Of a stretch of DNA of 64,000 nucleotides, positions 20,517 through 61,119 are shown one piece after another. This stretch comes from Escherichia phage Pollock. Below the pieces are notes generated by a model that saw only the letters and a list, made by a program, of their open reading frames with translations, was not told the DNA's origin and searched no databases. The DNA lies in the sequence record NC_027381.1. One strand, written 5' to 3'. Position numbers and translations under genes: made by a program. The first letter of the stretch is position 1. Every line of letters begins with the position of its first letter.

Positions 20517-20761
20517 TGGATATCGCATTTGTAGTTTCCAAATTGATTGTTACAGAGTACACGTTGCTTAGACAATGGTGGCCTGAACAATTACGTCAAT
20601 CCAGATATGTAGATAATGGAATGACTAGAACTTACTTCTTAGATACACATCCATCCCCTGAACTTCAAGAACTCATAGAAGAGTTACATAAGTTTGGGAG
20701 AGAGTATCGACTTATAGATTTAAGAGGAGTGGAAATAGATAATGCGTCATATAATCTTTGA
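20516..20761 (+). CDS. Hypothetical protein, 81 aa
   Basis: ORF only. Confidence 0.4.
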   Translation: MDIAFVVSKLIVTEYTLLRQWWPEQLRQSRYVDNGMTRTYFLDTHPSPELQELIEELHKFGREYRLIDLRGVEIDNASYNL

Positions 20762-22688
20762 ACAAAATCAAAGATATCCAATCGCCATTCTTATTAAACC
20801 TCAACAACTAAAGAAGAAAGAGATATTAGAAGCTTATATCAATCCTACTGGAATCAAGCCAAATCAATTTATTGCATTTGACCTTGAGTACAATGGGAAA
20901 AAAGCTCCTGTATCTATGCAGAAAGACTATCTTAAAGTCTTACTACCAGAGCTTTGTAATTTAAGAACAGAATATATTCTGTGCTGTGATAGTGCATATT
21001 TCAAAACCTTAACCAAGCAATCTAAAGCAGAACCTCATTGTGGTTATGTATTGCCTTGTGTCATTCCTGGTTTTGAACATCTAAATATTATTTTCTGTCC
21101 TAATTATGCTCAGATTTTCTATGACCCTTCTGTACAGGATAAAGTTAATCTGGCTCTCAAAGTTCTAGTAGATAAGGTAAATGGTCAATACCAAGAGATT
21201 GGTAAGAACATTATCCATACTGCTTACTATCCTTCTACAGTTGAAGAAATTGAAGCTTGGCTTGAATCTCTACATCAATATCCAATTCTAGCTTCAGATA
21301 TAGAGGCATTTAGTCTTAAATTCTATAAAGCAGGTGTAGGTACTATTGGATTTGCATGGGACCAACACAATGGAGGAGCATTCGCTGTTGATTATACGAA
21401 TGAACCAGACAAGGCTGAAAGAATTAGGCAGGCTCTTAAGAAGTTTTTTGAAACTTATGAAGGCAAACTGATTTGGCATAACTCAAGTTATGACTTAACA
21501 GTGCTTATTTACCAGCTTTGGATGAATGGTTTAGTAGACCAAAAAGGATTGCTTAAGGGTTTGCACATCATGTGTCGTAATTTTCACGATACTAAGATTG
21601 TGACATATCTGGCTACAAACTCTTGTGCAGGTAATGAGTTAGGGCTAAAAGCTCAAGCTCATGAATTTGCAGGAAACTATGCACAAGAAGATATTGATGA
21701 TATTACTAAAATCCCATTACCAGACCTTCTGGAGTACAACTTAATTGACTGTCTAAGTACTTGGTATGTTGCAGACAAACATGCAGATACTATGGTATTG
21801 GATGAACAATGGGAAATTTATAATACTCTGATGTTACCTTCGCTGAAGAATATTATTCAGATGCAATTAACTGGTATGCCTATTGATATGGCAGAGGTTA
21901 AGAAGGTTAAAGCAGAAATGATTAAAGAGCGAGATGGTTATCTTAGAGCCATCAAGTCATTTGCAGTAGTAGATTTGTTAGTTAACAACCTACGTAAACA
22001 ACATGTTGCTACTAGAAATGCTACGCTCAAAACCAAGCAAATTACAATGTCTGATGAGGAGACATTAGCAATAGAGTTTAATCCAAACTCTAACCCTCAA
22101 ATGCAGGAACTTTTGTATGAAATTATGGGATTACCTGTAATTGATTTAACTGATTCTAAGCAGCCTGCTACTGGTGCAGATACTCTAGAAAAGTTAATTC
22201 ATCATACAGATGATGATAGACAGAAAAAGATTCTTGAATGCCTTATTAAATATTCTAAGGTAGAAAAAATTCTTTCTGCATTTATACCTGCATTCGAAGA
22301 AGCACCTTTAGCTGAAGATGGTACTCATTATTTATTCGGAAGCTATAACTTAGGTGGTACTGTATCTGGTCGTTTGAGTTCATCAAAACCAAACATGCAA
22401 CAAATTCCTTCCTCTAAGAGTCCTTACGCCAAACCTATAAAACGATGTTTTAAAGCTGGTAAAGGTTGGCTTCTTATTGGATTAGATTTTGCATCTCTTG
22501 AAGACCGTATTTCTGCTCTAACAACCAAAGACCCTAATAAATTGAAAGTGTATATGGGGGTGAATGTTTATACGGTTACTATAGAGGGGGTTGACCATCA
22601 TATTCGAGATGACGATACAATCATTTATGATGGTAAAACTTACACTGGTGAAGAGTTCTATGATGCTTTTACCTGTGGCCTTCTATGA
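20742..22688 (+). CDS. Family A DNA polymerase, N-terminal segment (3-prime to 5-prime exonuclease domain through polymerase motif A)
   Basis: Pol I-type motifs SGRLSSSKPNMQQIP and motif A LDFASLEDR; the ORF then runs about 45 codons further to a stop; motifs B and C lie in a different frame downstream of an HNH ORF. Confidence 0.8.
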   Translation: MRHIIFEQNQRYPIAILIKPQQLKKKEILEAYINPTGIKPNQFIAFDLEYNGKKAPVSMQKDYLKVLLPELCNLRTEYILCCDSAYFKTLTKQSKAEPHCGYVLPCVIPGFEHLNIIFCPNYAQIFYDPSVQDKVNLALKVLVDKVNGQYQEIGKNIIHTAYYPSTVEEIEAWLESLHQYPILASDIEAFSLKFYKAGVGTIGFAWDQHNGGAFAVDYTNEPDKAERIRQALKKFFETYEGKLIWHNSSYDLTVLIYQLWMNGLVDQKGLLKGLHIMCRNFHDTKIVTYLATNSCAGNELGLKAQAHEFAGNYAQEDIDDITKIPLPDLLEYNLIDCLSTWYVADKHADTMVLDEQWEIYNTLMLPSLKNIIQMQLTGMPIDMAEVKKVKAEMIKERDGYLRAIKSFAVVDLLVNNLRKQHVATRNATLKTKQITMSDEETLAIEFNPNSNPQMQELLYEIMGLPVIDLTDSKQPATGADTLEKLIHHTDDDRQKKILECLIKYSKVEKILSAFIPAFEEAPLAEDGTHYLFGSYNLGGTVSGRLSSSKPNMQQIPSSKSPYAKPIKRCFKAGKGWLLIGLDFASLEDRISALTTKDPNKLKVYMGVNVYTVTIEGVDHHIRDDDTIIYDGKTYTGEEFYDAFTCGLL

Positions 22689-23205
22689 ACAACGGTATAA
22701 GATTTTTGATGAAGGTTTCATCTTAAATCTTGCAAACAATCAACTCCTAAAACCAATTCTCAATTCTAATGGATACCTTAAAGTTGGATTAGCTAATGGT
22801 GATGGTACTCATCATCAAGAGCTACTTCATATTCTGGTAGCTAAACACTTCATTCTAAATCCTTATGGCTACAAACAGGTAAACCATAAAGATGGTAATA
22901 AACTGCATTGCCATAAGGACAATCTGGAATTGTGTTCTGCTACTCAGAACGTCAAACATGCATTTAAAACAGGACTACGCCCCGGTTATATGTCTGCTGA
23001 TGATAAAGAGAAATATCTCTTTGAGGTACTAGCAGGCAAGCAAGTTAAGGACATTGCTTTTGAAATAGGCAGACGTCCTGAAACTCTGCACAAGATGCTT
23101 AGAATCACTGCTGACCGACTTGGTATCCGAAATGAATGGGACGATGTTATGAGGAGAAATAGAAAAGATGTTGCTTTACGACAGCTTGCCAAAATCAACT
23201 CATGA
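22591..23205 (+). CDS. HNH homing endonuclease inserted in the DNA polymerase gene (true start probably downstream of 22591)
   Basis: HNH_3-type core NGYLKVGLANGDGTHHQELLHILVAKHF...VNHKDGNKLHCHKDNLE...NVKH; paralogous to the intron-encoded HNH at 11898. Confidence 0.7.
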   Translation: MTIIFEMTIQSFMMVKLTLVKSSMMLLPVAFYEQRYKIFDEGFILNLANNQLLKPILNSNGYLKVGLANGDGTHHQELLHILVAKHFILNPYGYKQVNHKDGNKLHCHKDNLELCSATQNVKHAFKTGLRPGYMSADDKEKYLFEVLAGKQVKDIAFEIGRRPETLHKMLRITADRLGIRNEWDDVMRRNRKDVALRQLAKINS

Positions 23206-24028
23206 CTTCACTGGCAAGAAAATTGACAACGTAGTCAAGGCTGGTAATTCGTCAGGGTATGATGGTCATAGTTTGAGGGCATTTGCTTACTTTGGCGACC
23301 AGATGCCTGATATTGTAGATACTGTGGAAAGTATCAATAGTATTCAGGAATTATATAAGGACTTTAGACAAGACTCTAAAGCTCCTACTTTTGCATTAAC
23401 TTATCAAGGTACTTATCACACATTAATGGCTAACTGTGGTTTCCCAGAGGATAAAGCCAAAATGGTTGAGAAGAGGTATCACGAACTCTACTTCGTATCT
23501 GACCAATGGGTAAACGCTAAATTAACTCAAGCCAGTAAAGATGGATATATCACTGCTGCATTTGGATTAAGAATCCGTACTCCATTACTTAAAAATGTTG
23601 TCTGGGGAATTAAACAAACTCCTTATGAAGCTAAAGCTGAAGGCAGAACTGCTGGAAATGCTTTAGGTCAATCATGGTGTTTATTAAATAACAGGGCAGC
23701 AAATGAATTTATGGAACGAGTATGGAATTCTCCATACGCATATGTAATTAAACCATGTGCTCAAATCCATGATGCTCAATATTATCTGGTTCCAGATAAC
23801 ATCGACATTGTTCATTGGGTTAATGAAAATTTAGTCGAATGTATTGAGTGGCAAAACCATCCTGATATTTATCACGATAAAGTGAAATTAGGAGGGGAAT
23901 TAAGCGTCTTTTATCCATCATGGGCTAATGATATTTCATTGAAAAATGGAGCCTCTAAAGAGGAAATCTTAAGCACATGTGAAATTGGATTAGATAAGTA
24001 TCTTTACCCGGAGAAATATAAAAAATGA
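23168..24028 (+). CDS. Family A DNA polymerase, C-terminal segment (motifs B and C)
   Basis: DGHSLRAFAYFG (Pol I DIHRATAAEVFG), motif B RQDSKAPTFALTYQG (Pol I RRSAKAINFGLIYG), motif C CAQIHDAQ (Pol I VHDE); GAGGAG lies about 10 nt upstream of ATG 23168. Confidence 0.8.
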   Translation: MLLYDSLPKSTHDFTGKKIDNVVKAGNSSGYDGHSLRAFAYFGDQMPDIVDTVESINSIQELYKDFRQDSKAPTFALTYQGTYHTLMANCGFPEDKAKMVEKRYHELYFVSDQWVNAKLTQASKDGYITAAFGLRIRTPLLKNVVWGIKQTPYEAKAEGRTAGNALGQSWCLLNNRAANEFMERVWNSPYAYVIKPCAQIHDAQYYLVPDNIDIVHWVNENLVECIEWQNHPDIYHDKVKLGGELSVFYPSWANDISLKNGASKEEILSTCEIGLDKYLYPEKYKK

Positions 24029-25672: not shown

Positions 25673-26659
25673 ATGAAGTTAACCAATAACACTAACATCG
25701 CATTGTCGATGGCAGTATGGTTAGCTCAAGATGATTATGACTATATTGAAAAACCTAACTACATCTCTGCTACCAGTCTATTAAAGAGTGTTCGACAGTT
25801 AGTTCTAATGAAACGTCTTACAAGCGTTTCTAACGCATCAACTGATGTAGCTGACCGAATCTCTAATCGTATGGGTTCTGCCTTTCATGATGCGATTGAA
25901 AGAGCGTGGAAGGGTAATTATCAACAGTCTCTTAATGCTCTTGGTTATCCAAAAAGGGTTATTGAATCAATTCGTATTAACCCAACTCCTGAAGAGTTAA
26001 ATGAAGATGTAATTCCTATTTGGTTAGAACAGCGGGTTGAAAAGGAATTCAAAGGATGGATTATCGGAGGAAAGTTCGACATGGTTATGGAATATCGCTT
26101 AAGAGATGTTAAGTCTACTAGCGTATTCACATACATGAACAAATCCAATGATGAAAAATTCCGTATACAAGGAAGTATTTATCGTTGGCTCAATCCAGAA
26201 AAAATCAAACATGATTACATGTACATAGATTATCTCTTTACTGATTGGTCAGCTAATCAAGCCAAAAGTAATAAGGATTACCCACAGCAGAAGATTTTAG
26301 AATACCCCTTACAGTTGAAATCAGTACATGAAACGGAGCAGTATATTGCCTCCAAACTTGCTGCTTTGGAGAAGTATAAAGACTCTCCTGAACCAGAGTT
26401 ACCTGAATGTACAGAAGAAGAGTTATGGCGTGCTAAACCAGTTTATAAGTACTACAAAAATCCTAATTCAACGGGACGTAGTACAAAGAACTTTGACAAC
26501 CTGCACGATGCCAATTTGAGATTAGCTCAGGATGGTGGAGTAGGAATTGTTGTTACAGTTCCGGGTGAAGTTAAAGCTTGTAAACACTGTCCTGTCTATT
26601 CTCTTTGTACACAAAAAGATAGGTATCTGGCATCAGGAGAACTTGTCATTTCAGATTGA
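25673..26659 (+). CDS. Putative PD-(D/E)XK-type nuclease with C-terminal Cys cluster
   Basis: D...E-x-K-like segment GGKFDMVMEYRLRDVKS; C-terminal CKHCPVYSLC plus upstream PECTEEE Cys; placement in the replication module. Family assignment uncertain. Confidence 0.35.
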   Translation: MKLTNNTNIALSMAVWLAQDDYDYIEKPNYISATSLLKSVRQLVLMKRLTSVSNASTDVADRISNRMGSAFHDAIERAWKGNYQQSLNALGYPKRVIESIRINPTPEELNEDVIPIWLEQRVEKEFKGWIIGGKFDMVMEYRLRDVKSTSVFTYMNKSNDEKFRIQGSIYRWLNPEKIKHDYMYIDYLFTDWSANQAKSNKDYPQQKILEYPLQLKSVHETEQYIASKLAALEKYKDSPEPELPECTEEELWRAKPVYKYYKNPNSTGRSTKNFDNLHDANLRLAQDGGVGIVVTVPGEVKACKHCPVYSLCTQKDRYLASGELVISD

Positions 26660-28830
26660 GGAATCCAATGTTTGACCTATCATCAGCCACATACCATCCA
26701 ATCTCAGAAGAGATTGTAGATGTGCTATGTAAAAAAACCCTTAATAGTAATCGCTTGTTCTTTAGAGTTCAGGTTAGTTACTTTCTGGCTAAGATGGCAT
26801 CCAGTATGCGTTGTACTCTGGATACATTAGACAGAGGAAAGATTCCTGTTAATGTTTATGCCCTTAACTTAGCTCCATCAGGTTCAGGTAAAGGGCATTC
26901 CACTAATATCATTGAAGGTCAGTTCCTGAATCAATTTAAGGGTACTTTCCTTCAGGATACATTTCCATATATAGCTAAACAGAATCTTATAGATGTAGCT
27001 GCTAAAAGAGCAGGTAAAAATGGTACAGACCCAGCAGATGAACTTGTTAAGGTAGAAAAGGAATTTGCTAGTACGGGTGCTTTAGCATTTTCGTTTGATA
27101 GTGGTACTGTTCCTGCCCTTAAACAATTACGTCATAAGTTACTTTTAGCAGGAATTGGTGCTGCATCTTTTGAATGTGATGAGTTAGGTAAAAACTTAAT
27201 TGCAAACATGGATTTGTTAACAGCTTTTTTAGAGTTGTATGACCAAGGACTTATCAAACAAAAGTTAACCAAAAATACAGCAGACTCTCAACGAATGGAG
27301 GAATTAGAGGGGAAAACCCCAACTAATATGCTTCTGTTTGGTACTCCAAATAGTTTGCTGAATGGTGGTAAAGAAGAAGATGAATTCTATGCATTGTTAA
27401 TAGCAGGCTATGCAAGACGTTGTTTATTTGGATATTCTCGTAAAGAGGATTTTCAAAAAGACATGTCTCCTGAAGAAGTCTTCGATATGCTTACCGATTC
27501 TACGTCTAATGCTACTGTAGCTAGACTATCTCAGCATTTTGGTATGTTGGCTGATGTAGCCAAATATAACCAACATATAGCAGTTAACAGAGATGTAAGT
27601 ATTAAACTTATTGCTTATAAACTTCACTGCGAACAAATAGCTGATAAGCTTCCTGACCATGAAGAAATTCGTAAAGCTGAATTACGACACCGTTATTTCA
27701 AAGCATTGAAGTTAGCAGGCGTATATGCATTTGTAGATGAAACTCCAGAAGTAACTGAAACTCAATTACTATCTGCAATTAAATTAGTTGAAGAGTCTGG
27801 TGAAGCTTTTAATAAAATTCTCAGTCGTGAGAAGAATTATGTGAAGCTTGCTAATTATATTGCAGAAATAGGAAAAGAAGTTACTCATGTAGATTTGGTA
27901 GAAGACTTACCATTCTATAAAGGGAGTAATGCACAGAAGCAAGAGCTTATGAATTTGGCTATTGCTTATGGGTATAAGCATCACATTATTATTAAGAAAA
28001 CATATATTGATGGTATTGAGTTCTTTAAAGGTGAAGCTCTTAAACCAACTGACCTCAATAAACTTATTGTTTCTTATAGTAATCATATAGCCTATAACTA
28101 TCTCTCAGAGACGATATCCTTTAGTAACCTAGAATCCTTATGCAAGATGGAAGACATGCATTGGATTAATCATGCATTGGTTAAAGGTGCTAGTGGGGAT
28201 GGTCACAGAGAAGGTGGAAATATCATTCCTGGTTTTAATGTTATCGTCATTGATGTTGATGGAGGAACATCTCTGGATGAAGTTAGAGTATTGATGAAAG
28301 ACTATACGTATATCATCCATACTACTAAACGGCATCAAACAGAAGGATATGGCGATAGATTCAGATTAATTATACCTATCAACTATCATCTAAAATTAGA
28401 TGAGAATGAATTCAAAGAATTTATGTCAAATATCTTTGAATGGCTTCCATTTAAAGTAGATGAACAGACTAGTCAACGTGCTCGTAAATGGGCAACACAT
28501 CCGGGTATTTCATTTTCTAATGAAGGTGAAATCTTAGATGCTTTAGCTTTCATTCCAAAAACCAGTAAGAATGATGAGCTAAAGAAAACTATGGTTGATT
28601 TAGGTAATCTGGATAATCTTGAACGTTGGTTTGCTCAACGTATGGGCAACGGAAACCGAAACAATCAACTGCTAAAATTTGCTATGATGCTTGCAGATAC
28701 TGGTATGAATTATCAAGATATTCTGCATAAGGTAATTGATTTCAATTCTAAATTGAGTAATAGCCTTCCAGAGATTGAAATCCATAACACTATCATGCGT
28801 AGCGTCAGCAAAAAGTTATCAGAAAAATAA
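26656..28830 (+). CDS. Replication protein with primase-polymerase (AEP)-like C-terminal domain
   Basis: C-terminal NVIVIDVDGG ... YIIHTTKRH ... motifs resemble AEP primase-polymerase motifs I and II; 724 aa; in the replication module. Confidence 0.45.
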   Translation: MRNPMFDLSSATYHPISEEIVDVLCKKTLNSNRLFFRVQVSYFLAKMASSMRCTLDTLDRGKIPVNVYALNLAPSGSGKGHSTNIIEGQFLNQFKGTFLQDTFPYIAKQNLIDVAAKRAGKNGTDPADELVKVEKEFASTGALAFSFDSGTVPALKQLRHKLLLAGIGAASFECDELGKNLIANMDLLTAFLELYDQGLIKQKLTKNTADSQRMEELEGKTPTNMLLFGTPNSLLNGGKEEDEFYALLIAGYARRCLFGYSRKEDFQKDMSPEEVFDMLTDSTSNATVARLSQHFGMLADVAKYNQHIAVNRDVSIKLIAYKLHCEQIADKLPDHEEIRKAELRHRYFKALKLAGVYAFVDETPEVTETQLLSAIKLVEESGEAFNKILSREKNYVKLANYIAEIGKEVTHVDLVEDLPFYKGSNAQKQELMNLAIAYGYKHHIIIKKTYIDGIEFFKGEALKPTDLNKLIVSYSNHIAYNYLSETISFSNLESLCKMEDMHWINHALVKGASGDGHREGGNIIPGFNVIVIDVDGGTSLDEVRVLMKDYTYIIHTTKRHQTEGYGDRFRLIIPINYHLKLDENEFKEFMSNIFEWLPFKVDEQTSQRARKWATHPGISFSNEGEILDALAFIPKTSKNDELKKTMVDLGNLDNLERWFAQRMGNGNRNNQLLKFAMMLADTGMNYQDILHKVIDFNSKLSNSLPEIEIHNTIMRSVSKKLSEK

Positions 28831-28869: not shown

Positions 28870-29598
28870 ATGTCAGAACCAATTAAAGATTTGGTATTGA
28901 TTGCAGGTGCATCCTCTTCAGGTAAATCATCTTCATTGATGAATTTGCCAGACCATCCGGGAGTGATGTATTTAAACTGTGAATCAGGTAAACGTCTGCC
29001 ATTTCCAAACAAGTTTGATAAATATGTAATCACTGACCCACTTCAAGTATACGAAGCATTTGATGCTGCTGAACAGATGCCTCATATTCATACCATTGTT
29101 GTAGATTCACTTACATTCTTGATGGATATGTTTGAATCTCTTTATGTAGTTGGTTCTACCAATACCATGAAGGGATGGGCAGATTATAACCAATATTTTA
29201 AAAACTTGATGCAGGATAAAGTAGCTAAGTCTACTAAACGTGTAATTTTCACTGCTCATACTCTATCTCAATTAAATGAGAATGAGATGATTATTGAAAC
29301 TAAAATTCCGATTAAAGGTGCTTTAAAGAACCAAGGAATTGAAGCGTATTTTACCTGCATTGTTTATGCCAAGAAGATGCAGCTTAAGCATCTGAAACCA
29401 TATGAAAATGACTTATTAGTCATTACTCCTGAAGAGGAAATTCTTGGCTATAAGCATGTATTTCAAACATGTATCACTAAAGATACTGTGCATGAACGTA
29501 TTCGTTCTCCACGCTTTATGTGGAAGATGAATGAAAGTTTCATTGATAATGATGTAACTAAAGTATTGGACCGTATTAAAGAATTCTACGAAGAGTAA
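28870..29598 (+). CDS. RecA-fold P-loop NTPase (AAA_24/Sak4-like)
   Basis: Walker A AGASSSGKSS near the N-terminus, Walker B-like IVVDSLTFLMD; about 240 aa as typical for phage Sak4-type ATPases. Confidence 0.5.
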   Translation: MSEPIKDLVLIAGASSSGKSSSLMNLPDHPGVMYLNCESGKRLPFPNKFDKYVITDPLQVYEAFDAAEQMPHIHTIVVDSLTFLMDMFESLYVVGSTNTMKGWADYNQYFKNLMQDKVAKSTKRVIFTAHTLSQLNENEMIIETKIPIKGALKNQGIEAYFTCIVYAKKMQLKHLKPYENDLLVITPEEEILGYKHVFQTCITKDTVHERIRSPRFMWKMNESFIDNDVTKVLDRIKEFYEE

Positions 29599-29607
29599 GG
29601 AATAAAT

Positions 29608-30348
29608 ATGTCTCTGTTAAAAAATCTGGAAACTAAAGCTGGTGTTGAAGGTGAAAAGGATACCCTAGGTGGAGGTGGTGTACTTGACTCTGGTCTGTAT
29701 GACCTGATTGTAAAAGTAGCTTATATCTCTGCTTCTAGTGGTGGTGCTTTAGCTCTAAATACTATCTTTGATTATGATGGTAAAGAAGTACGTCAGCAGT
29801 TCTGGATGACTTCTGGCAATGATAAAGGCAATAAGAACACCTATATCGGTAAAGATAATAAAGAACATTATCTACCGGGTTTCTTAGCTGCTAATAGTTT
29901 GGCTCTTTTGACTGTTGGTAAAGAAATTAGCCAACTGGAATTGGAAGAGAAAACTATCAAGCTGTATGACTATGAGGCTAAAGCTGAAGTACCTACTAAG
30001 GTACAGGTATTTGTTGAATTAACTGGTCAAAAAATTACTGCTGGTATTCAGAAACAGACCGTTGATAAGAACATTGATTCTGGTCAGGTTGACGGTAATG
30101 GTAGAAAAATTTATGTAGCATCTGGTGAAACTCGTGATATTAACGAAGTAGTTAAATTCTTCCGTCACGATGATGGTTTGACTGTACCTGAAATTGAAGC
30201 TGGTAAAACTGAGGCTCAATTTAAAAATGATTGGGATGCTAAATTTACTGGTAAAACCATCAATAAAGCTAAAGGCTCTAAGGATGGTGTAACAGCAGGT
30301 GCTCCATCAGCAACAGCAAAACCAACTAAATCCCTATTTGCTAAATAA
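29608..30348 (+). CDS. Putative single-stranded DNA-binding protein (by position; N4 SSB analog)
   Basis: Gly/Lys-rich 246-aa protein between replication genes and the vRNAP gene; ends in tail KPTKSLFAK shared with ORF 31002; strong terminator follows. No direct OB-fold motif recognised. Confidence 0.4.
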   Translation: MSLLKNLETKAGVEGEKDTLGGGGVLDSGLYDLIVKVAYISASSGGALALNTIFDYDGKEVRQQFWMTSGNDKGNKNTYIGKDNKEHYLPGFLAANSLALLTVGKEISQLELEEKTIKLYDYEAKAEVPTKVQVFVELTGQKITAGIQKQTVDKNIDSGQVDGNGRKIYVASGETRDINEVVKFFRHDDGLTVPEIEAGKTEAQFKNDWDAKFTGKTINKAKGSKDGVTAGAPSATAKPTKSLFAK

Positions 30349-40800: not shown

Positions 40801-42468
40801 AGCATCAACAGCTTTAACTACAGTTGGTTCTGCTACTGCTTCAGCATCTGTTTGTTGTACTGTTTGTTTAACTGATTCATTAGCAGCAGATACAGTATTC
40901 CTAAAAGATTGTGCTCTGGATTCTGCTTTACGGGCTTCTCTTGCTTCAAATGCTTCACGACCTTGTTGAGCACCTTCTTGAATTGCTCTAGGTGTTTCAC
41001 TGATAGCCGAGCCAAAAGCACCCATACCCGCACCAGCAATAGCAGACTCAACAGCGTTTGAACCAATGTCTTCAGCAAGGGACTGAGATTCATCAGCAGA
41101 AGTCCGTATGCCGAGGTTAGAAGCAAATTGACCAGTAATCCCTTGGGAGGTTTCTTCAATAGTTTCTTTGAAAGCATTGTTAAGAACTCGTGAGGAAGCA
41201 CTAAAGAATCCCGTACCTTCAAGTAAGGAAGGAGTGAATATACGAGATTCAAATGGAGCAGCAACCTTACCAGTCAGAGCACCAAGAGTACCTGCTACCA
41301 AAGCAGTGACATTACCTGTTTGAGTACGTACTTGTCTTCTGGCTTGCTCTGGAGACATACCATCAGCAATTAAATCACGATACATAGGTGATTTTTCTGC
41401 TAATTGCTTATCAGTCATTCCATCAATCTGGTCTAATGTTTGTTGGGCATTAGAACCTGCTTCTTGGAAACCTACATAACCAACCAATGCTCTTTCAGCA
41501 GCATCCTGAAGACGTTTTCTACCATACTGAGTTGAAGCTAGCTTGGTAGCAAAATCTGCACCATATTCTTCAGCTAATTGTTTAAATGCTCCACGAGAAG
41601 CAATCTTACCTACTAAACCACCAGTTAATATATCTGGAGCAGATTCAGCAATAAGTGTAGTTAATGCTCCCGGAGCACCACCATATTGTTCAGCAGTATT
41701 AACAAACTGACGTAATTGTTCTTTAGCCCCTGCAACTAAAGGATTATCACCTTTAGCTATATCAGCAGCTTCACGAGCTTCAGCACCTTGTTTAAATCTC
41801 TCTTTTTCTGCTTCAATTACAGATTGTTCATATTGAACACGCGGAGAATATTGAGAACGTTGTTCTTCAACATACTGTTTTAATGGTACATCAATACCCA
41901 CTTGTTCTAATAAAGTAGGTTGTCCTAATTGTTCTTCTTGACCAGTAACATTAGCAATTAAATCTTGAGTATTTTGTAATGCTAAGTTACCCAAACCAGT
42001 AACAAATCTAGCTGTATTACCTGCCCATATCTGTGCAGCATTACCTACATCAGATAATTCTATAGGAGCATTTTCAAATATATCTGTATTGGCTTGAGCA
42101 ATATTTAAAGACAGTTTGTCTCTAGCTGCCTGAGGACCATATTTCTGCTGTAATGCAGATAAAGGCATATCTCTTAAATCAGCCAAATATTGCTCAGAAG
42201 GATTAGTTTGAGTAGCAGTAGTAGTAGTTCTTTGTCCAGATAGCATCTGATTCATCTGTTCTCTTGTATATTTAGGACCAGATTCTGCTAACTGGATTGC
42301 TTGCTGTGCTCTTTGATACTGTGGAGAACCTACAGCAAAGTCTATTTCTACCCCGGGTACTGGAGTACCTAACTCTAATTTCTTCTGTTGAGTAGCTATA
42401 TTTAATTGTTGTGTTTTTTGTAAGGCAGCATTAGCTAATTCTTGCTGTTTCTCAAATCCGGTGGCCAT
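31855..42468 (-). CDS. Virion-encapsidated RNA polymerase (vRNAP; N4 gp50-like), 3537 aa
   Basis: Single 10.6-kb ORF; a protein of about 3500 aa adjacent to the virion-protein block is the hallmark of N4-like podophages; synteny with the downstream late genes matches N4. Confidence 0.85.
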   Translation of the reverse strand: MATGFEKQQELANAALQKTQQLNIATQQKKLELGTPVPGVEIDFAVGSPQYQRAQQAIQLAESGPKYTREQMNQMLSGQRTTTTATQTNPSEQYLADLRDMPLSALQQKYGPQAARDKLSLNIAQANTDIFENAPIELSDVGNAAQIWAGNTARFVTGLGNLALQNTQDLIANVTGQEEQLGQPTLLEQVGIDVPLKQYVEEQRSQYSPRVQYEQSVIEAEKERFKQGAEAREAADIAKGDNPLVAGAKEQLRQFVNTAEQYGGAPGALTTLIAESAPDILTGGLVGKIASRGAFKQLAEEYGADFATKLASTQYGRKRLQDAAERALVGYVGFQEAGSNAQQTLDQIDGMTDKQLAEKSPMYRDLIADGMSPEQARRQVRTQTGNVTALVAGTLGALTGKVAAPFESRIFTPSLLEGTGFFSASSRVLNNAFKETIEETSQGITGQFASNLGIRTSADESQSLAEDIGSNAVESAIAGAGMGAFGSAISETPRAIQEGAQQGREAFEAREARKAESRAQSFRNTVSAANESVKQTVQQTDAEAVAEPTVVKAVDAVTEPAAKEVFKAIPEEEISSPDSILRISRAIKERNLDEASRRDLAVVGNNVISAYEEALPQIQAQMEVAPEEEKAQYQTAIDNINAVLNHPDVQAVKTTAESFRLTPEEMNKIMESLPSEITPETYKSPEVQKNIKSVLAQMNLDASSITPEVADRLVNSAETIGLNQQDVDKLKIISATGKAMSQVGEDVRKGSDGFIGIQQYQQGIFRALSLGDTARAQGLLDHLNRFAEHMETKANAFEQAAQNFTGNQPVEVINPTTGQPYLSLDGNPMTYHPVRSKGLIKEIRNDANAVRQAHTITSQLVDGKPVSVPAQSAPVATEELVSTQESEAPIEASAQVSEEQVQTPSETVETQPEAVTEAPTSTPVQGELFEKPDVVESEIQIQEKPTEVETDLMDESQLELGLDKGVNFDILSSLQSETVRSDAKSTSEADKNYQATNQVKKWFKPTGKRSAFLRTSNFSGRLNNIFTNGSNPITQIQNLFKGFIKPEQVTEKEVKVLRQFAGLVPAIEQSLIQSWGKLTPEGQRIFWETYPVEYFSEVRNINGENVYFLPQPVIEAMTAGMMQWFVRNAVETTFNDDRTVMDILGLDNKTKPTVEQTDLLRNVGTDRQNVIDYLSREIFGILGINADPNTPISVRDAVSKALATEVLNVMINANLVQESVVKNSELAAVGSTKVNESNIKNSRIFIRMNEESEAAKRLVDLMKDSNDLLGQLTNPQREKAGAYFGTPPKGQSTKVKNGGGQDIPEKMLAARNKASKQPHYINMGLHDLMLDKLGTEWIGRMLGIQSEENANGAHLKSIQGSNRTIERDINTLINGLTRMSEAGLPLANTPIYFAYNVISNFRMMLNSGDLNPQSAKLHRELITVEPSTIELNNPQHGAFLDYAIAQGLDIAVDKLSSETARDKLNKAISTGLFRDAINILKAAENQDSISDADAEVLLEAVKAGKEKTKTLHALYAQAQYELAVEQGKSSFQTHVMLELDGVTNGPFNSIVQLGLKDVNQDLLNKLEKGGLFYGQSDRLYNDAAEEPGFLDLYKTAAAGSQQYINNMMDAYSNIPNRLAALKNKSRQFQQKEMRDIERLKNQVRVTLAASKLIGDVNIVEGEDVEHPIQIGRGLLKNPVTVTVYSGGANAINRKIAMGIANGYYEAITEALRAVDSATNQEDRDAAIAHINDLTNTTNELTTAQVFRNGSWVKIGAPINLGKDVTKFEFTSEQIEAITQNIKIGIGAAVNESIANEFGTVINRGKMMVYAAAVMHEVFMSRWNKVVEAKEKELREAGKLSKYESLSQQQYNEIKRELITQMPIFNSWFTAGNTDAAKLNEGILLSEEGRVTFDIYRMESRGRRNLDGKMRRATFGVDTPTYTEPGTRVMPLLVQSVEAAMQAIARDINPNNALNVFDGYINAVAHLDTGSQAINQGVLQSWNEFDLLQDFTNRFEQAMEGVNLTEELGPDADTRLEQSFRGIMEMIGADETNSPTSPEVLEAFTTLLKKEAATQTAIKQGLLGGEAVTSINQMTGANIPFNVQNGKQTDKEAIDTRTPLEQLIANTELPTMESVSLPKGRVTIPPTRQMIEALAKNGRNVSGHDGIKVLSKGDVIAAIKEAAKSLPSRQNRITSFVLDKIANSIPEDINVYVGSPEALSAVQQEMTPDTKVEFNNSFLGLTQGQNIYIGSQSIETVMHELIHAATANAVHNYYSNPEALTPAQKVEIASIEALMTKFVNEYSSTNPETDSVVDLINNHIASGDMAQATAEFIAWGLVNPRMIDAMTKKTITGTVTKVLKQLAESIKRLFAIGSNPDITSYWTRLLGHTVALADATNPVKSRDTTSYAQQNANNINRLDAETLFNKLDAGKASQEHVNHLTDTLDYLQSNIIKVIKNTGQQISGLEHYQDKLLVDSIDPEIDDSPNALIAHGFNMSEKEAFVFKMLQVSMKYGLENFSPSVLVARSLYSQARENLKVEDFLTDPNNRSANEMALAKQRYDAVFGNTAITTDATGRTNRLANFIALAETNEQLRNKLSQISVKRTRQNQATSLRERIGDLTNMILTWLSGLATKSLRDTNIASRLSKLAKNISHVDSQARDNLFTRIGRGTEEITEATQDRLRAFGNSIRKQLSKVEKKVPKSVAFGITVGAAVFNEQDAHDVREAITHIYMTIHQDGKLGTIAELINEFIGSNETNSSIHTLLTQKNMAADRARQIIREMVPGMIEKTFVSLNQNEKEAIQRVVANTDMAYLFANGYDLVRLNELLTNPNELAKEIDLIESQLQKAGAQNSAFYIKSAHGLAKQMVHGVSPLAYQLSNAAAIARLIGTGRERPSNDAVEIATQLIDTLASLSALTELSQADKETVSNVISREMTKGEPDNNGMTFTLKYYESLKGAELAKSGNNYSLAAVKGFTPTITDPNKKVIIASIKDEPSLSRRGYTRGAQVKRDPADTDKTPMYYYHSNNGGEPRWIAGVMSTLQSTVGGVNPITGRSVNGSMTPGAWKTSEKNKVSANKQAAINDLFDASKPMPQNYDGQMQPVLNRAGSIMGYSYQMPRANREAQLNVDNDFTKVLAAWEGRIAEEIQAAKYNEMLLERLGEIYKKDAREGKAYQYITIDENSTDHQLKEIYELMPIEMKEAAKRIWPNGKIKVRKDLLNNAFGYREPSVLNLWTGQTNFSKEFQKAFVNIAETFLGKNAARYLRLGERGLMEFVKEMKDWIVVRSVVVSAGNILSNMVHLATVGISPITMAKDMSTAVLAAEEYRRNEKLINEYSHYLAVNHNPRMAEEYQRKISELKDSQARNPVADLIKAGLLPTIAEDLGQQDDYSLKDKLLTKMDEYTSGIPDSVKRVAKEITLSRDSNVYFLLNRSIQYGDFVAKYSLYKHLTTRSRNPMDKDSALNRVMDEFVNYDILPSRTRFYLDAIGLTWFLNYKIRIQKIILRTIRENPLRALFLMFGNTAESGLPNIMEANLATGSLSYNVGMGTALNGFTIHPLVSLY

Positions 42469-54950: not shown

Positions 54951-57806
54951 TTACTTATTCTCAAGTGCATCTATTCTACTAACCAATACATTAACAGTTT
55001 CTGCTAATGAATCAATTTGATTAATAGTAGCTCTCAGACACCACCAAAGAAGTTCTTCTTTTCTAAAGCGATATCGAGTACCTGCTTCTAATGCAGGACG
55101 TACTAGAACTTTTTGAGATTCTCTTACAAGTACTAAGGTTGTACCACTTAATAGCTCTCCTTCATCAGAGTAGATAGCAGGTTGTACAGGTACTTCTTCA
55201 TACTCTGCTGGAATCTCTTCATATTCTGCTTCAACAGCATCCCAAGAATCTAAACAGAAAGCACTGTATTTTCTCCAATCCAGTCCATGTTTAGTCATGA
55301 TATCAATTGCTGCTTGCACAGTAGGACCAGAATGTAATCTGGCATCATCACCTTCTTCTTCAATTCGTTGTAACCATCTCCATACAGAAGGTAAACGAGC
55401 TATTTCTGCAAATGCAGCAATCTCTGATGAATTGATATCTCTTGGTTCATCTTTCAATGTTGCATCAGATACAACAGTCGGTGAATTATTAAAGTAAGCA
55501 TTACTGAATGCTTTACTAGAAGAACCAATATTATAGGTATTGTTAGTTGAAGGTAAGAAGTTACCTTTAATATCTGTATCCATCTGCATGAATGCAGTGC
55601 CGTTACTACGGGCTGCAATTACATAAGCGTCAGCAGAATCGTCATAAATACCCAGATTCCCGGATGTTGATACCTGGAAAGCTCCCGCCTTCAGCGTGGT
55701 ACTGATAGTCATGCGCTTCTGGGTTTTGTCATCCGATTTAATATTCACGCCCTGCAGGTATGCCACATTCCAGCGATTTGGCGATGACCCCAGATTCATT
55801 GCCTTGTCCTGGTCGGGATGAAATGACGGCGAGACCGGACTCAATAATACAGACCAGGTCTCGCTGCCATCGGTACAATAAAGCCTTGTGCGCCCCGCCG
55901 ACTGAGTATCGTTCATTGAGTAAAGGTTAATCCCGCCACCGCTCAACAAATTCACGTCAGCGCGTATTTCCAGACAATCGTGCACGGCGTTCAGGCGGTG
56001 TTTCCACTGAACGAAGCGGCCTGTGTATTCTCCGGTTCGGAACGCATCCCCGAACAAACGAAAAACAGCAGCAGAAGTGTCTGTATCCGGAGCCTCCTTT
56101 CTGACCTCAAATAACGGGCGATGCGAGCGCAGATTCTGCTCATAGGCTGCCACCTGGAAGTCTTCATTGGGTGACAGGGCAATATTTACAGCATTGGGAC
56201 ATAGAAAAAGACTGGCATGACTATCAGGATAAGCTACACCAAAAATTGAATACCCAGTACCATCATAAGGTTCTACAGAGACAATAGCTTTAGTACGCTT
56301 TGTTCTTGTACCACGAGTATAAGTCTTTGTTGAATCCCATTGACTTGCATTACTTGTTCCATAAGTAGTAGGTGTCCAATAAGTTGGGTTTACTGGAGAA
56401 TACCCGGAAAAATTAGCTGTTCTTGCAGCAAAGTATTTTCCTTCAAATAAAACAACATCTGCTGTGGCATACCAAAAATCCATATCAAGCAGATATAGTT
56501 TACCTTTATATAAAGCTAATCCTTCTGGTTCTTGTAAACATGGATAACCTAATTCTGCATTACCAAGCATTTTCTCACGTCCATACTTAGCACGCACACC
56601 ATCTACATTAAACCATCTAATAATCTCACCTGTGAATAAATTATAAATAACAATACGGTGGGTTAAGAAAACACCATTGTATCCATAATATACATATAGA
56701 TATTGGTCATCACTTGCCATCCCTTGGAAAGATTGAGCCACCATAGGGATATTATTTATATGAAATCTATATTTAAATGTTAAAGAAACACGGTCAAATA
56801 CATAAATTATACGGTGGTCATCTCTGTTATACTGTACGTGAACAGGCTCACCTATAGTTTCAATAACTAATGTTTTACCACTTTCAGATAATGCAAGTGT
56901 GATAATTTCATCGTTGTTATAGAAGTCTGATTTAAATACTTCTACTCTAGTAATATTTGATGTAGTAGTATCTCTTCCTTTCCAATTAATTATATTGATA
57001 CCTTTACTGTCTTCAGTAGGTAAATACAAAATTACACCACCATTCTCATATATAGCCCCGATACTCTGATGACCTATATCTTCAAATACTGGAGAGAAAG
57101 AAATAACAGTAGGGTTTTCATTGTCCCCTTCTGGATTAAATGTTGTTTCAACAATTCTAACTCCACCTGTTACTGGTTGATGGATAAACATACGTAAACC
57201 ATCTGGAGTTTCACAAATACAGAATCCCTGACTTAAATTTTCTGCACCTTCAAAAATTCCTGAATAATCAATATCATGTACAACTTTATGTTGTAGAGCT
57301 ATATTATCAACAATAGGGTTATGTGTTGCTAAAGTTCCTACAGGAACCCATGCACCAACATGAATACCTCCACTTTTTTCTGGAGTAGAATCTGGTTCAA
57401 CTACTTTAGGTAGTTCTCCATCCCATCTATATAAACCAGAAATACTTGTAAGTACTTCATTCTTAGTAGTTATAGTAGTTCCTGTAGTAAATGAACCAGG
57501 TACAGTTATAAACTCTTCTCGTTGTGCCCCTAATTCACCTAAATCTACAGAACCTTGTGAATGTACAAGTACAGCATCAGTACCAAGACTGATGGCAGTA
57601 GTACCAGAAGAAATGTCAGTAGGTAAGGAATAAGCTCTTTGTGTTGTCTTATCATAAATAACCTTATAACCACCTAAATCTACTCCTTCTGAGAAGTAGA
57701 CTACTTCACTCTGTTTAACACCAAACTTACGAGCAATAGCTTGTTTGTTGGTTAAGATTCCAGTTGAACCTCTACCACCTTGGCTGAACATTTCGTTCAT
57801 ATACAC
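54951..57806 (-). CDS. Tail fiber or tailspike with C-terminal intramolecular chaperone (peptidase S74-like) domain
   Basis: C-terminal region contains SDATLKDE (S-D-x-x-x-K cleavage-site motif) and DDARLHSGPTVQAAIDIM (S74-like core); contains a locally GC-rich internal segment. Confidence 0.6.
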   Translation of the reverse strand: MYMNEMFSQGGRGSTGILTNKQAIARKFGVKQSEVVYFSEGVDLGGYKVIYDKTTQRAYSLPTDISSGTTAISLGTDAVLVHSQGSVDLGELGAQREEFITVPGSFTTGTTITTKNEVLTSISGLYRWDGELPKVVEPDSTPEKSGGIHVGAWVPVGTLATHNPIVDNIALQHKVVHDIDYSGIFEGAENLSQGFCICETPDGLRMFIHQPVTGGVRIVETTFNPEGDNENPTVISFSPVFEDIGHQSIGAIYENGGVILYLPTEDSKGINIINWKGRDTTTSNITRVEVFKSDFYNNDEIITLALSESGKTLVIETIGEPVHVQYNRDDHRIIYVFDRVSLTFKYRFHINNIPMVAQSFQGMASDDQYLYVYYGYNGVFLTHRIVIYNLFTGEIIRWFNVDGVRAKYGREKMLGNAELGYPCLQEPEGLALYKGKLYLLDMDFWYATADVVLFEGKYFAARTANFSGYSPVNPTYWTPTTYGTSNASQWDSTKTYTRGTRTKRTKAIVSVEPYDGTGYSIFGVAYPDSHASLFLCPNAVNIALSPNEDFQVAAYEQNLRSHRPLFEVRKEAPDTDTSAAVFRLFGDAFRTGEYTGRFVQWKHRLNAVHDCLEIRADVNLLSGGGINLYSMNDTQSAGRTRLYCTDGSETWSVLLSPVSPSFHPDQDKAMNLGSSPNRWNVAYLQGVNIKSDDKTQKRMTISTTLKAGAFQVSTSGNLGIYDDSADAYVIAARSNGTAFMQMDTDIKGNFLPSTNNTYNIGSSSKAFSNAYFNNSPTVVSDATLKDEPRDINSSEIAAFAEIARLPSVWRWLQRIEEEGDDARLHSGPTVQAAIDIMTKHGLDWRKYSAFCLDSWDAVEAEYEEIPAEYEEVPVQPAIYSDEGELLSGTTLVLVRESQKVLVRPALEAGTRYRFRKEELLWWCLRATINQIDSLAETVNVLVSRIDALENK

Positions 57807-57852
57807 CTCTTTGTTTTTCTAAAAAAATCCCCTCCGAAGAGGGGAGTAAAGC

Positions 57853-60800
57853 TTAGTAAAATTTCTTTTCAGTAGAAGATTCTAAAACAGAAAGACGTTC
57901 TTCTATTCTTTCTAATCTTCTGCGTAGATAAGCAGCCTCAAGCCATAAGCATTGGTCTGCACGTATTCCCCAACGATTACCAGCCTCTCTTACGAGAACT
58001 TTTTCACCAGTATCATATTCTTCCTCTACTTCTGTTTCCACACCATCAATAATGGTAGATACTTTTCTAGTTGCTAATACTGGCTCATAAGAGTCTTCCC
58101 ATTCGTCATAACAAAGAAGACCAAATTTAGTTCCATCTAAACCATGAGCAAGGAAAGCATCTCTTACCTGTTGAGCTATTACACCAAAATGCCAACGAGC
58201 ATCATCATTTTTAAGTTTGATAGCAGAGAGCCAACGGAAAGCTATGATTCTTACATCTTCCCAAGCATCCAGAATTGCATCTCCATCATATTCTGAAGAC
58301 AGAGATGAGCTAAGTTCACTGGTAGTTACTGGCTCTGTTTTCTCTCTTTCATCAGATGTATTTATTGTTCCAGATACAGCATAAACCTGAGTAGGTCTAT
58401 TATCTGCAACACCAAGACTATAGGAGTTATCCAGATAAGGATGCCAATGACCATTTGGACTTACTTTCCATCTCCATGTGTCATTACTTCCCAAATGTAA
58501 ATCAGCTCCATTTGCAGCCATTAAAGCTACATTGGAAGTGCTCATGTACATCTGGAAATAACCAACGCCTTTTCTCTGCCATTCATAAAGCAAGCCTGTT
58601 TCCTGTTCGTTGTTGAACTTTAATGCTTTTATAGGTGAATTTTCTCCCCATGTTGTATCACCCGAATAAATTACATGAGGAACCACCTCAGGATTATCAG
58701 AGATACATATTTCTTTAGATGGTAGAGATAGCGTTCTTTTATCTCCTGCACCAAGCGCATAAATCAGAATGGTGCGTCTGGTTGCCCCCATAACATCAGA
58801 ATGCTCAGATACTATTGTTACCGATGGATATAGAACACCATCGTAATCAACAAAATGCATTCCTTCTGATTCACGGAATGTAGGAGTAGAACCAATGATT
58901 CTAGGTAAATCAGTATCACCTAAATCAGAGATAGCTTTCCGTACATCATTACCTAACAAGTCACAACTGGATAAGTACTGGGTTTGTCCAAATGTAATAT
59001 TCCCGCAATACATATACAGATGCGAGCCATCAGAACAAAATCCACTAAGTGATGTGGTTTCATCACCACCGACTTGTGAAAGTTGAAGAGTAAACTCATG
59101 AGTACACATAGATGAATAATCACCTTGTGTATCAAAAATATCTGTAGAGAAAATGCGGAATGTTTGATTGTTGTAGTCAGCATTATCAGTAAATCTAACA
59201 ATCAACCATTTACCATCAAGAGAAATAGTAGGTGTAGTTGAGCTACCTGCTGTACGAGTTTCTTCTACAACTCTAAACAATTCAGGCGCATCAATTTCAC
59301 CGTCTGTGTTACTTCTCCAAGAAAATCTAACAATCCCGTGAGAACCGCCTACAGAAAAATCAAAATCAGTATGGGTAGTAGAACCTGCTGGTGTATCTGG
59401 TGCTGTAGTCCATAACTTAATTGCATTATTTAAATTCTGTACTGCTATACCCTGATGACCCAATCTGTCTTCAGGTAACATAAAGTCAGTAGAACTATTA
59501 ATAATTCTTGAGTCAGCAGAATACTTATTCCAGATAGAAACAGTAGTGGCATTACCATCTATTTCTGTATTGTGGTTAGAGTAATAAGCCCTATCTACAG
59601 GGTCATATGTGAATGTCTGTAGTGTTCTTATTTGTCCACGACCCTGAGCAATAGGAATGAATCTTACTGCTGAATTAGATTCTCGACCTATAGTATAAAC
59701 ATCCCATGCTGGCTTCTTATTAGTAAGAAGCTCCCCATTCATAGGAATGGATTTTCCGTTTATAAGCCAAGTACCATTAATATAGATATTTTTAAAGAAG
59801 GTTTTAGTAGTGGCATATACTTTGCCATCCATATCTATAACCTTGGATGTAACATCTGATTCTAGTTGCTCAAATGCACTAGTATCATCAGTAACACCAT
59901 TACCTACTATTCCCCATGCACGAGGGTCATACTCATCTTTCCAACGAGCTATCTGTAAATCAGGATATAAAGTAGCACCATCAGGATTACTAATTTTATC
60001 CTGAAGGTCTAAACCAGTAATTACTTCATCTAAGATAACTACTACGTTACCGGGAGTATAAGTAAGTTTTCCATCTGCTACTGTAGAGATATAAACATTT
60101 CTTAAAGCAGTAGGTAACCTATAGATTTTCTGTTCATCTACAGAATAGATAATAGTTTTATTATCTAATGCCTGACTGGTATTAGTACTTAAAATTACTT
60201 CTGAATTTTTTACATTAGTGGCTCTTGCTACCTCTTGAATAGTACGGTCAGCAATCTCAATAACTTCTTGCTCACCTCCAATCTGAATAATCAAACGGTC
60301 ATTAGCAACCAATGGTTCAGTAAGAGTAATGGTTTGAGCATTAGCATCTACAAAGTAGGATTGAGTTTGTAATCCCTTATAGAATCTCAAACCATTCTTA
60401 AATACCGCAGGAATATCCTGAAAGGTATATGGAATATTGATAGTAGTTTCACCACCAACAGCAGCACCTTCATTGTATAACCAGTTAAAAATAGTCCAGT
60501 TATCAATATTTGGATTATCAGGTACAGCAGGAGTACCACTAAGAAGTAAAACTACTTCATCTCCTTCCTCTAAAGCTTGAGATAATGTAACCAAGTTATT
60601 GGAAATAGAGAATTGAAATCCATAACCAACAGATTGCATGTAGCCATTAACAATAATAAATGGAACACTTACAGTTCCATTGGGTACTGTAATAGTAGTT
60701 TCTCCACCTAAAGCAAAGCCACTCTTATAAACATAAGGAATGTAGGAACCACCACCATTTCCACCAGACGAGGATGTACCTACAACAATCCAACTACCTG

Positions 60801-61119
60801 TAGCTCCAGATTCATTAGGAATGATTCCAGAAGTATCGTTTTCTACATACAAATAATCTGTATAGATTATGTAACTAGAATCAAAAGTATTATAGATACG
60901 TGCATACTTGACAGATACAGGAAGTGCTTTTAATTCATCTTCTGAAGTAACACAAATAAGTACTCCATACTTATTTAGAAATTCATAGATAAAGTGAATT
61001 TCTCCTAAGCTATCATATACAGCTTTAACTACGTCATATGCTGTACCAATAAACTTTTCTACTAATGGAGCATTGTTACCACAACAAGTATTAGTAGTTC
61101 TGATTGACATTATACCCAT
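57853..61119 (-). CDS. Tail fiber or tailspike with C-terminal intramolecular chaperone (peptidase S74-like) domain
   Basis: C-terminal SDEREKTE motif and DDARWHFGVIAQQVRDAF (matches the G-x-IAQEV core of S74 chaperone domains); 1088 aa, Gly/Thr/Ser-rich. Confidence 0.65.
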   Translation of the reverse strand: MGIMSIRTTNTCCGNNAPLVEKFIGTAYDVVKAVYDSLGEIHFIYEFLNKYGVLICVTSEDELKALPVSVKYARIYNTFDSSYIIYTDYLYVENDTSGIIPNESGATGSWIVVGTSSSGGNGGGSYIPYVYKSGFALGGETTITVPNGTVSVPFIIVNGYMQSVGYGFQFSISNNLVTLSQALEEGDEVVLLLSGTPAVPDNPNIDNWTIFNWLYNEGAAVGGETTINIPYTFQDIPAVFKNGLRFYKGLQTQSYFVDANAQTITLTEPLVANDRLIIQIGGEQEVIEIADRTIQEVARATNVKNSEVILSTNTSQALDNKTIIYSVDEQKIYRLPTALRNVYISTVADGKLTYTPGNVVVILDEVITGLDLQDKISNPDGATLYPDLQIARWKDEYDPRAWGIVGNGVTDDTSAFEQLESDVTSKVIDMDGKVYATTKTFFKNIYINGTWLINGKSIPMNGELLTNKKPAWDVYTIGRESNSAVRFIPIAQGRGQIRTLQTFTYDPVDRAYYSNHNTEIDGNATTVSIWNKYSADSRIINSSTDFMLPEDRLGHQGIAVQNLNNAIKLWTTAPDTPAGSTTHTDFDFSVGGSHGIVRFSWRSNTDGEIDAPELFRVVEETRTAGSSTTPTISLDGKWLIVRFTDNADYNNQTFRIFSTDIFDTQGDYSSMCTHEFTLQLSQVGGDETTSLSGFCSDGSHLYMYCGNITFGQTQYLSSCDLLGNDVRKAISDLGDTDLPRIIGSTPTFRESEGMHFVDYDGVLYPSVTIVSEHSDVMGATRRTILIYALGAGDKRTLSLPSKEICISDNPEVVPHVIYSGDTTWGENSPIKALKFNNEQETGLLYEWQRKGVGYFQMYMSTSNVALMAANGADLHLGSNDTWRWKVSPNGHWHPYLDNSYSLGVADNRPTQVYAVSGTINTSDEREKTEPVTTSELSSSLSSEYDGDAILDAWEDVRIIAFRWLSAIKLKNDDARWHFGVIAQQVRDAFLAHGLDGTKFGLLCYDEWEDSYEPVLATRKVSTIIDGVETEVEEEYDTGEKVLVREAGNRWGIRADQCLWLEAAYLRRRLERIEERLSVLESSTEKKFY

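Follow-up and report, generated by a model that had tools for sequence, protein, structure and literature searches.

The 64,000-nt stretch of Escherichia phage Pollock DNA analysed here (NC_027381.1, called the window below) contains a GC-rich block at 55567-56200, inside the tail-fibre/receptor-binding protein gene located on the minus strand. We conclude that this block is very probably a recombination patch, that is, that an N4-like phage swapped about 630 nt of its fibre gene for the homologous stretch of a prophage. The homology, the type of donor, the breakpoints, the direction of the transfer and its recurrence in the phage lineage could each be demonstrated. The features of the gene that the argument relies on are the following:

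54951..57800, minus strand: tail-fibre/receptor-binding protein gene (open reading frame (ORF) list; Pfam Tail_spike_N and Peptidase_S74)
57321..57800, minus strand: N-terminal virion anchor, amino acids (aa) 3-162, of the CBA120 tailspike / G7C gp63.1 type
56262..57299, minus strand: beta-propeller-like domain, aa ~170-515, predicted by AlphaFold2; AT-rich and outside the patch
55567..56200, minus strand: GC-rich patch, aa 536-747; 626/634 identical to prophage allele L001 and 621/634 to allele L003
56179..56200, minus strand: 5' crossover interval, conserved in all alleles (GTCCCAATGCTGTAAATAT...)
55566..55603, minus strand: 3' junction, from base-level alignments and the triplet test
54951..55469, minus strand: intramolecular chaperone Peptidase_S74 (PF13884), phage-type and AT-rich in the window

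An earlier note, written from the sequence alone, had placed a GC-rich mosaic block at 55590-56220 and explained it by recent acquisition from a higher-GC phage or prophage. The rise in GC is real: 200-nt windows go from 0.30-0.40 to 0.49-0.54 between ~55600 and 56200. In 600-nt windows taken across the whole 64 kb (mean GC 0.36, standard deviation (sd) 0.03), the maximum of 0.522 at 55580 lies ~5 sd over the mean and the runner-up region reaches 0.45. A log-likelihood segmentation (GC 0.52 vs 0.36) returned 55594-56180 with a score of 33, all other segments scoring 9.2 or less. The GC content of 55567-56200 (634 nt) is 0.509, compared with 0.354 in the remaining gene and 0.36 in the window, and codon usage follows: the GC content at third codon positions (GC3) is 0.37-0.70 in the block vs 0.07-0.30 in the flanks of the same gene. 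The GC-rich strings quoted in the note were found on the plus strand, the peptide ...DKAMNLGSSPNRWNVAYLQGV... is encoded in the block on the minus strand, and the limits proposed there are near the refined ones, 55567-56200, obtained by comparison with donor and sister genes. The block is by far the strongest compositional outlier of the window. Promoter and terminator scans revealed nothing tied to it.

The search for the source of the block gave no nucleotide match among the ~50,000 records of the phage GenBank collection, even at low stringency. The known phages in GenBank match only the first ~460 nt of the fibre gene, and the best full-length protein relatives in the phage collection are ~50% identical. 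Meanwhile, when 5,426 complete E. coli genomes were searched, 87 proved to have a fibre gene matching the block, with 96.8-97.3% identity over 678 nt, and all of these matches are chromosomal. The donor-type genes follow the gpV-W-J-I baseplate genes of P2-like prophages. The gene is carried by the defective P2 remnant adjoining ogrK/yegQ in E. coli C, B-derived strains match as well, and in strain SW070919 the prophage fibre gene follows a Mu-like tail module. It should be noted that the SW070919 fibre gene (L001:10432-13287) is annotated from inside the body (761 aa) and has a truncated pseudogene just upstream; its N-terminal adaptor seems disrupted, and the closest sampled donor type may therefore be a defective gene.

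The alignment with the prophage gene, which is GC-rich over its full length, extends beyond the block: nucleotides 497-2778 of the phage gene align to it with 76% identity overall. The 612-nt core (56180-55567) is identical at 605/612 sites to allele L001 and at 599-600/612 to four other alleles (98.0-98.9%), whereas the flanks reach 64-68% (about 67%) nucleotide identity. In the codon alignment, the flanks are 56-79% identical, with a GC3 of 0.07-0.30 in the phage vs 0.33-0.80 in the prophage, while aa ~536-746 are 96-100% identical and the two GC3 values coincide. The proportion of synonymous differences (pS, Nei-Gojobori) is 0.85 in the flanks, i.e., saturated, vs 0.014 in the block. The fibre body (aa ~165-950) thus represents an old, AT-shifted homologue of the P2-/Mu-like prophage fibre. 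The acquisition from a higher-GC source proposed in the earlier note is thus borne out, as the block is nearly identical to E. coli prophage tail-fibre genes and equals them in GC and GC3. The description of the block as an acquired module holds in that the segment was imported; it does not hold in the sense of a foreign addition, as what took place is an allelic replacement, resembling gene conversion, within a homologous gene (~67% nucleotide identity).

Since the phage GenBank collection gave no match to the block, the state of the gene before the patch was sought in metagenome and SRA assemblies. For this, sister phages were found by a protein search for full-length relatives having the same N4-type anchor. 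The resulting set consists of eight contigs from independent samples: L021/L022/L029, L023, L026/L027/L028 (three separate ENA assemblies, one of them a 69-kb contig) and L030. These contigs share the gene order of the window (fibre, fibre, lysis cassette, portal), with an overall identity to it of 94-96%; their fibres are 97-99% identical to that of the window at aa 1-100 and aa 736-950. The prophage-type segments of their fibre genes, in window coordinates, are as follows:

window: prophage-type at 56200-55567, 626/634 identical to a prophage allele
L026/L027/L028: prophage-type at 55972-55399 (574 nt), 566-567/574
L021/L022/L029: prophage-type at 55972-55903, 69/70
L023: prophage-type at 56087-55999, 85/89
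L030: no prophage-type segment

Over the interval of the patch, the orthologous sister fibres stay AT-rich, L021/L022/L029 and L023 departing from this only in their short prophage-type stretches of 70-89 nt. Both short patches were significant (Bonferroni P < 1e-6; log-likelihood ratio 21-23 vs a permutation maximum of 10.5-11.6). A search of IMG/VR for relatives returned only the source contig and prophage-type contigs, and a sister-specific 47-mer was not found in the JGI metagenomes. The window itself is 100% identical to the IMG/VR contig IMGVR_UViG_2706796286_000001 (68,365 bp).

The comparison with the orthologous fibres and the prophage alleles resolved sharp breakpoints. In the triplet test, the informative sites inside the patch at which the window agrees with the prophage number 179-180, against 1-5 at which it agrees with the sisters; outside the patch, the respective numbers are 41-61 and 452-491 (chi-square 450-517). 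On the 5' side, bases 56201-56202 are phage-type, the sequence is prophage-type from 56178 on, and 56181 is ambiguous. On the 3' side, the switch falls between 55567, the last informative base of prophage type, and 55566, the first of phage type; this crossover ends a run of 37 nt (55603-55567) in which the window and the prophage allele do not differ. No Chi site that might cause the breakpoints is present in the phage or the prophage fibre gene, and no invertase or inversion site was seen.

These data also bear on the possibility that nothing was transferred and that local selection on the protein or mRNA, or a diversity-generating retroelement, yielded the GC-rich stretch. Within the gene, divergence among the sisters does peak in this segment, with a synonymous/nonsynonymous divergence (dS/dN) of 0.74/0.17 vs 0.30/0.06 in the flanks. 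However, 98.6% of its synonymous sites are the same as in the prophage allele, which refutes this explanation, and the AT-rich orthologues encode the same domains. Neither a template/variable repeat pair nor any other notable repeat, direct or inverted, was found in 54951-61119, and no tRNA that could cause the GC peak was found in the window. The block aligns with the sister and prophage genes without gaps and the ORF is continuous; as its length is unchanged, no intein, intron or mobile element has been inserted. We give this explanation practically no credence.

The direction of the transfer was examined using the substitutions found in the patches of the phages and absent from five prophage alleles. 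Thirteen of the 14 distinct substitutions of this kind are GC-to-AT, including all six that are private to the patch of the window (chance of 0.002-0.02 under unbiased substitution). Because the patch has the same GC content as the prophage gene and as E. coli, and because the substitutions in the patches run almost exclusively from GC to AT, the comparison indicates a transfer from prophage to phage. This fits a transfer that is recent relative to the history of the gene but not brand new, the AT-ward drift having just begun. The opposite direction, in which the GC-rich sequence was native to the phage lineage and was given to the prophages, is very unlikely, although phage-to-prophage flow seemingly occurred in the neighbouring fibre gene (described at the end). 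The GC and GC3 of the patch match the remaining prophage gene and not the phage, and the prophage gene is GC-rich throughout in 87 genomes and in two kinds of tail module. Moreover, L030 has no patch, L021/L022/L029 and L023 are AT-rich over most of the interval, and the drift within the patches is GC-to-AT.

Donor typing at the sites that are polymorphic among prophages assigned the patch of the window to pL001 (10/12 sites) and that of L026 to pL002, the E. coli C type (11/11 sites). In the 406-nt overlap of the two patches, they differ at exactly three sites, the same ones that separate pL001 from pL002, including a G at 55826 that is private to pL002 and present in L026. As the two patches follow different donor alleles at the separating sites, the typing indicates at least two acquisitions. 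Meanwhile, L021 and L026 have a common 5' edge at 55972 and a common private C-to-T substitution at 55935, and some of the patches are therefore related by descent. Recurrent exchange is the reading that we prefer, recombination between phages having later shortened some of the patches.

Several observations weigh against the explanation by a recombination patch. None of the sampled prophage alleles is 100% identical to the patch, and a search of the 5,426 complete E. coli genomes for a closer donor gave nothing above 626/634. At the 3' junction, the sister and prophage alleles share just 7-14-nt runs, and therefore the real recipient allele or the mechanism may differ from what the sampled sisters suggest. 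The exact recombinant is present in one contig only, its junction 33-mer occurring nowhere else in IMG/VR or the JGI metagenomes. Finally, two charge-changing variants that are not prophage-type, E694K (55727) and D735N (55604), are common to the patches of the window and of L026/L028; they are absent from the five prophage alleles and were not seen in the retrieved prophage-type proteins either. A common history explains them no less well than separate acquisitions do, and the possible explanations include convergence, a donor missing from the sample and the spread of patch sequence between phages.

The shared variants also speak for a single ancestral acquisition, in which an ancestor took at least ~800 nt (at least 56200-55399) from a prophage and AT-rich phage alleles later overwrote different parts of it by recombination, so that the patches of the window, L026, L021 and L023 would be its nested remnants. 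Every patch lies inside that one interval, the edge and substitution common to L021 and L026 agree with such an origin, and the rest of the gene is a phage-phage mosaic. Against this, under a single acquisition the three sites separating pL001 from pL002 would all have had to change by coincidence to states known from prophages, and we consider such an origin possible but rather doubtful. It is equally tentative to propose that 56200-55399 is a hotspot, where a virulent N4-like lineage repeatedly samples P2-/Mu-like prophage alleles and donates sequence back, E694K and D735N re-tuning separate acquisitions.

The presence of the recombinant in a single contig could also mean that host reads with the homologous prophage gene were joined to the phage during assembly at short shared k-mers; the commonly used hosts E. 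coli C and B have the homologous gene, and the junctions do lie in short shared stretches. However, the patch matches none of the 87 genome alleles exactly (best 626/634), carries the six phage-private GC-to-AT substitutions, and can be told from the allele of E. coli C by 12 of the 612 core sites. Patches of the same sort, bounded differently, occur in the sisters, which were assembled independently from different samples; the reading frame is uninterrupted; and the host path would presumably have to beat a far deeper phage coverage. Such a chimera is highly improbable.

Taking the patch as a product of recombination with a prophage, its origin can be pictured as follows. The phage would have infected an E. 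coli cell in which a P2-like or Mu-like prophage, intact or as a defective remnant, was resident. The fibre genes of phage and prophage are of old common origin (~67% nucleotide identity with saturated synonymous sites), the phage copy having shifted to the low GC of the phage, and the crossovers fell within short conserved islands. Candidate catalysts are the exonuclease, the Sak4-like annealase and the single-stranded DNA-binding protein (SSB) of the phage and/or host RecA. The imported stretch retains the GC and codon usage of the prophage and replaces the beta-domains between the propeller and the stalk/chaperone, and the patch may have been kept since it altered or restored receptor binding. 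The genes for the phage candidates lie close together (E-values from PHROGs):

25673..26659, plus strand: exonuclease (phrog_2139, E 2e-145)
26656..28830, plus strand: DNA primase, 724 aa (phrog_2135, E 0), located between the exonuclease and Sak4-like genes and outside the proposed machinery
28870..29598, plus strand: Sak4-like single-stranded DNA-annealing protein (phrog_124, E 5e-47)
29608..30348, plus strand: SSB (phrog_743, E 4e-75)

The phage can be classified from its genes as an N4-like podovirus, because its portal-to-lysis region is ~81-82% identical to Shigella phage B2 and Salmonella phages FSL SP-058, SP-076 and SP154, and because the genome encodes, besides a 3,537-aa ORF and a primase, RNA polymerase subunits of the N4-like kind and a DNA polymerase that is apparently split. 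Strict virulence is established for this group of phages. The two polymerase ORFs, 20742-22688 and 23168-24028, are separated by an ORF for an HNH endonuclease (22591-23205), and HNH endonucleases are also encoded by ORFs at 11898-12458 and 13289-14434.

The mechanically called ORF of the fibre gene, 54951..57806, starts with the GTG at 57806 (951 aa), which overlaps the ribosome-binding site. The true start is likely the ATG at 57800, giving a product of 949 aa, because an AAAGAGG ribosome-binding site is present upstream and the gene calls of the sister phages begin there (MNEMF). Terminator-like hairpins are found on both sides of the gene (57845-57828 and 54938-54924). In a PDB sequence search, the N-terminal anchor matched 4oj5 (E 6e-69) and 4qnl (E 2e-57), and also 5w6f and 5w6h; PF18668 (Tail_spike_N) was detected at aa 96-157 (64.6 bits vs a gathering cut-off of 25). 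The fibre N-terminus is ~80% identical at the nucleotide level to the tailspike N-termini of Kuttervirus and N4-like phages.

An AlphaFold2 model was built from a 60-sequence alignment, with a mean predicted local distance difference test score (pLDDT) of 86. In the model, the propeller is followed by a linker, after which come beta-domains (aa ~550-664 and ~697-740). The propeller region has a pLDDT mostly >90 and is ~68% identical to the prophage alleles at the nucleotide level. The patch (aa 536-747) begins in the linker and stops where a low-confidence stalk, presumably trimeric, begins, so that, as modelled, it would span essentially the whole globular part after the propeller. Within the patch, aa ~680-760 (~55530-55770) are nearly missing in distant members of the fibre-body family (25-35% identity; alignment occupancy 0.02-0.03) and form an extra element particular to the close enterobacterial family. 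The fibre-body family comprises ~200 clusters at 50% identity, and the same body module also stands on T7-gp17-type and other N-termini in metagenomic proteins.

The chaperone domain was detected by PF13884 at aa 780-842 (37.3 bits vs a gathering cut-off of 22). The Ser780...Lys785 motif, VVS780-DATLK785, is located at its start, and from the family a cleavage at Ser780 would be expected. PDB sequence matches were to T5 pb1 (4uw8) and the endosialidase chaperone (3gw6); upstream of the chaperone, the sequence matches T5 pb1 at its distal end. In the sisters L026-L028 the chaperone is partly prophage-type, the patch of L026 extending to 55399.

The patch alters 45-57 of 204 residues when compared with the sisters, and most of these changes lie at aa 631-746. 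An effect on receptor recognition and host range, as proposed in the earlier note, is plausible, because the region is distal and borders on the homologue of the T5 pb1 tip. In the closest structural analogue, the phi11 receptor-binding protein, however, it is the propeller and not the tower that is the known sugar-binding part. The predicted propeller followed by C-terminal beta-domains may resemble the receptor-binding proteins of the S. aureus phages phi11, 80alpha and P68 (5efv, 6v8i, 6iab), which were the top Foldseek matches (E 6e-11 to 5e-10 over ~580-610 columns, with low TM-scores of 0.30-0.41). The sequence identity to them is 12-13%, they have another N-terminal anchor, and the fibre described here ends in Peptidase_S74. 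To our knowledge, such a chaperone is not known from these S. aureus proteins. Residues 3-162 match the anchors of G7C and CBA120, and residues 733-874 match the chaperone families of K1F endoNF and T5 pb1; in contrast, the central 570 residues have no sequence relative of solved structure in the PDB search.

Fibre-gene segments have been exchanged horizontally among unrelated coliphages, namely in lambda stf, T4 gp37 and P2 H (Montag 1989 and Haggard-Ljungquist 1992, cited in PMC3945230); these classical exchanges are described in PMC3945230 as ancient and possibly due to site-specific recombination by invertases. The exchange found here differs in being recent (~1% divergence) and within a homologous gene, with crossovers in short conserved islands. 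Phage recombinases can act on sequences that are short and diverged, with defective prophages as the partners (De Paepe et al. 2014, PMC3945230). Our case resembles that work in having a resident, often defective, prophage as the source, short diverged homology at the borders, implicated phage recombinases and tail-fibre substrates. That study concerned temperate phages and Rad52-like recombinases, whereas here the recipient is N4-like and the annealase Sak4-like.

Genes flow extensively between temperate phages and virulent ones (Moura de Sousa et al. 2021, PMC8136500), with Bouchard and Moineau 2000 cited there for virulent-temperate flow, and virulent phages of E. coli and Salmonella have been compared with prophages (PMC11069274). 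These studies likewise have virulent phages gaining prophage sequence in lysogens, with transfers in both directions. The surveys dealt with whole genes or ~540-bp regions of unassigned function, whereas here an intragenic patch has breakpoints resolved to the base. We consider it a well-resolved fresh case of a known kind of event and not a new kind. The series available at this locus is unusually complete: it comprises the alleles of the donor, one sister that lacks a patch, four patches whose borders differ, breakpoints resolved to the base and the beginnings of compositional drift. Receptor-binding proteins set which bacteria a phage kills, and their renewal in lytic phages bears on phage therapy and on arms races. 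Caution is advisable, as a phage regarded as virulent can gain ~630 nt of prophage DNA from hosts like E. coli C or B. If the tentative hotspot proposal is true, prophage fibre genes would be a ready library of host-adapted receptor-binding sequence for lytic phages.

Apart from the patch, AT-rich alleles of different phages have been combined within the fibre gene (~57490-57230, 57090-56900 and 56410-56230), by exchanges that leave no compositional trace. At aa ~121-190 and ~466-525, the window is near L023 (82-98%) and not L021 (66-82%), while at aa ~241-300 it is near L021 (93-98%) and not L023 (69-79%).

Other GC peaks of the window (0.46-0.50) are located at 16143-17137 and 40911-41150. 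They were considered as prophage patches and rejected, being ordinary ORFs that match no E. coli genome. The first lies inside a 480-aa ORF (15967-17409) of unassigned function with ATPase-like matches and the second inside the 3,537-aa virion RNA polymerase ORF.

The neighbouring second fibre gene (57853-61119, minus strand; 1,088 aa) is homologous, from ~aa 360, to a P22-like prophage tailspike. The homologue (L024:4977-7466) adjoins intS/argW in E. coli AST215 and is the sole match among the 5,426 genomes. The two are 62-89% identical over most of their length and 97-100% identical over ~360 nt (~58480-58840), with no GC contrast. The sister phages have the block at ~58480-58840 too; they are 97-100% identical to the window over most of the second fibre and 87-88% at aa 801-840. 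Because the sisters share this near-identical block, the prophage looks to be the recipient in the second fibre gene, the opposite of the direction found for the patch.

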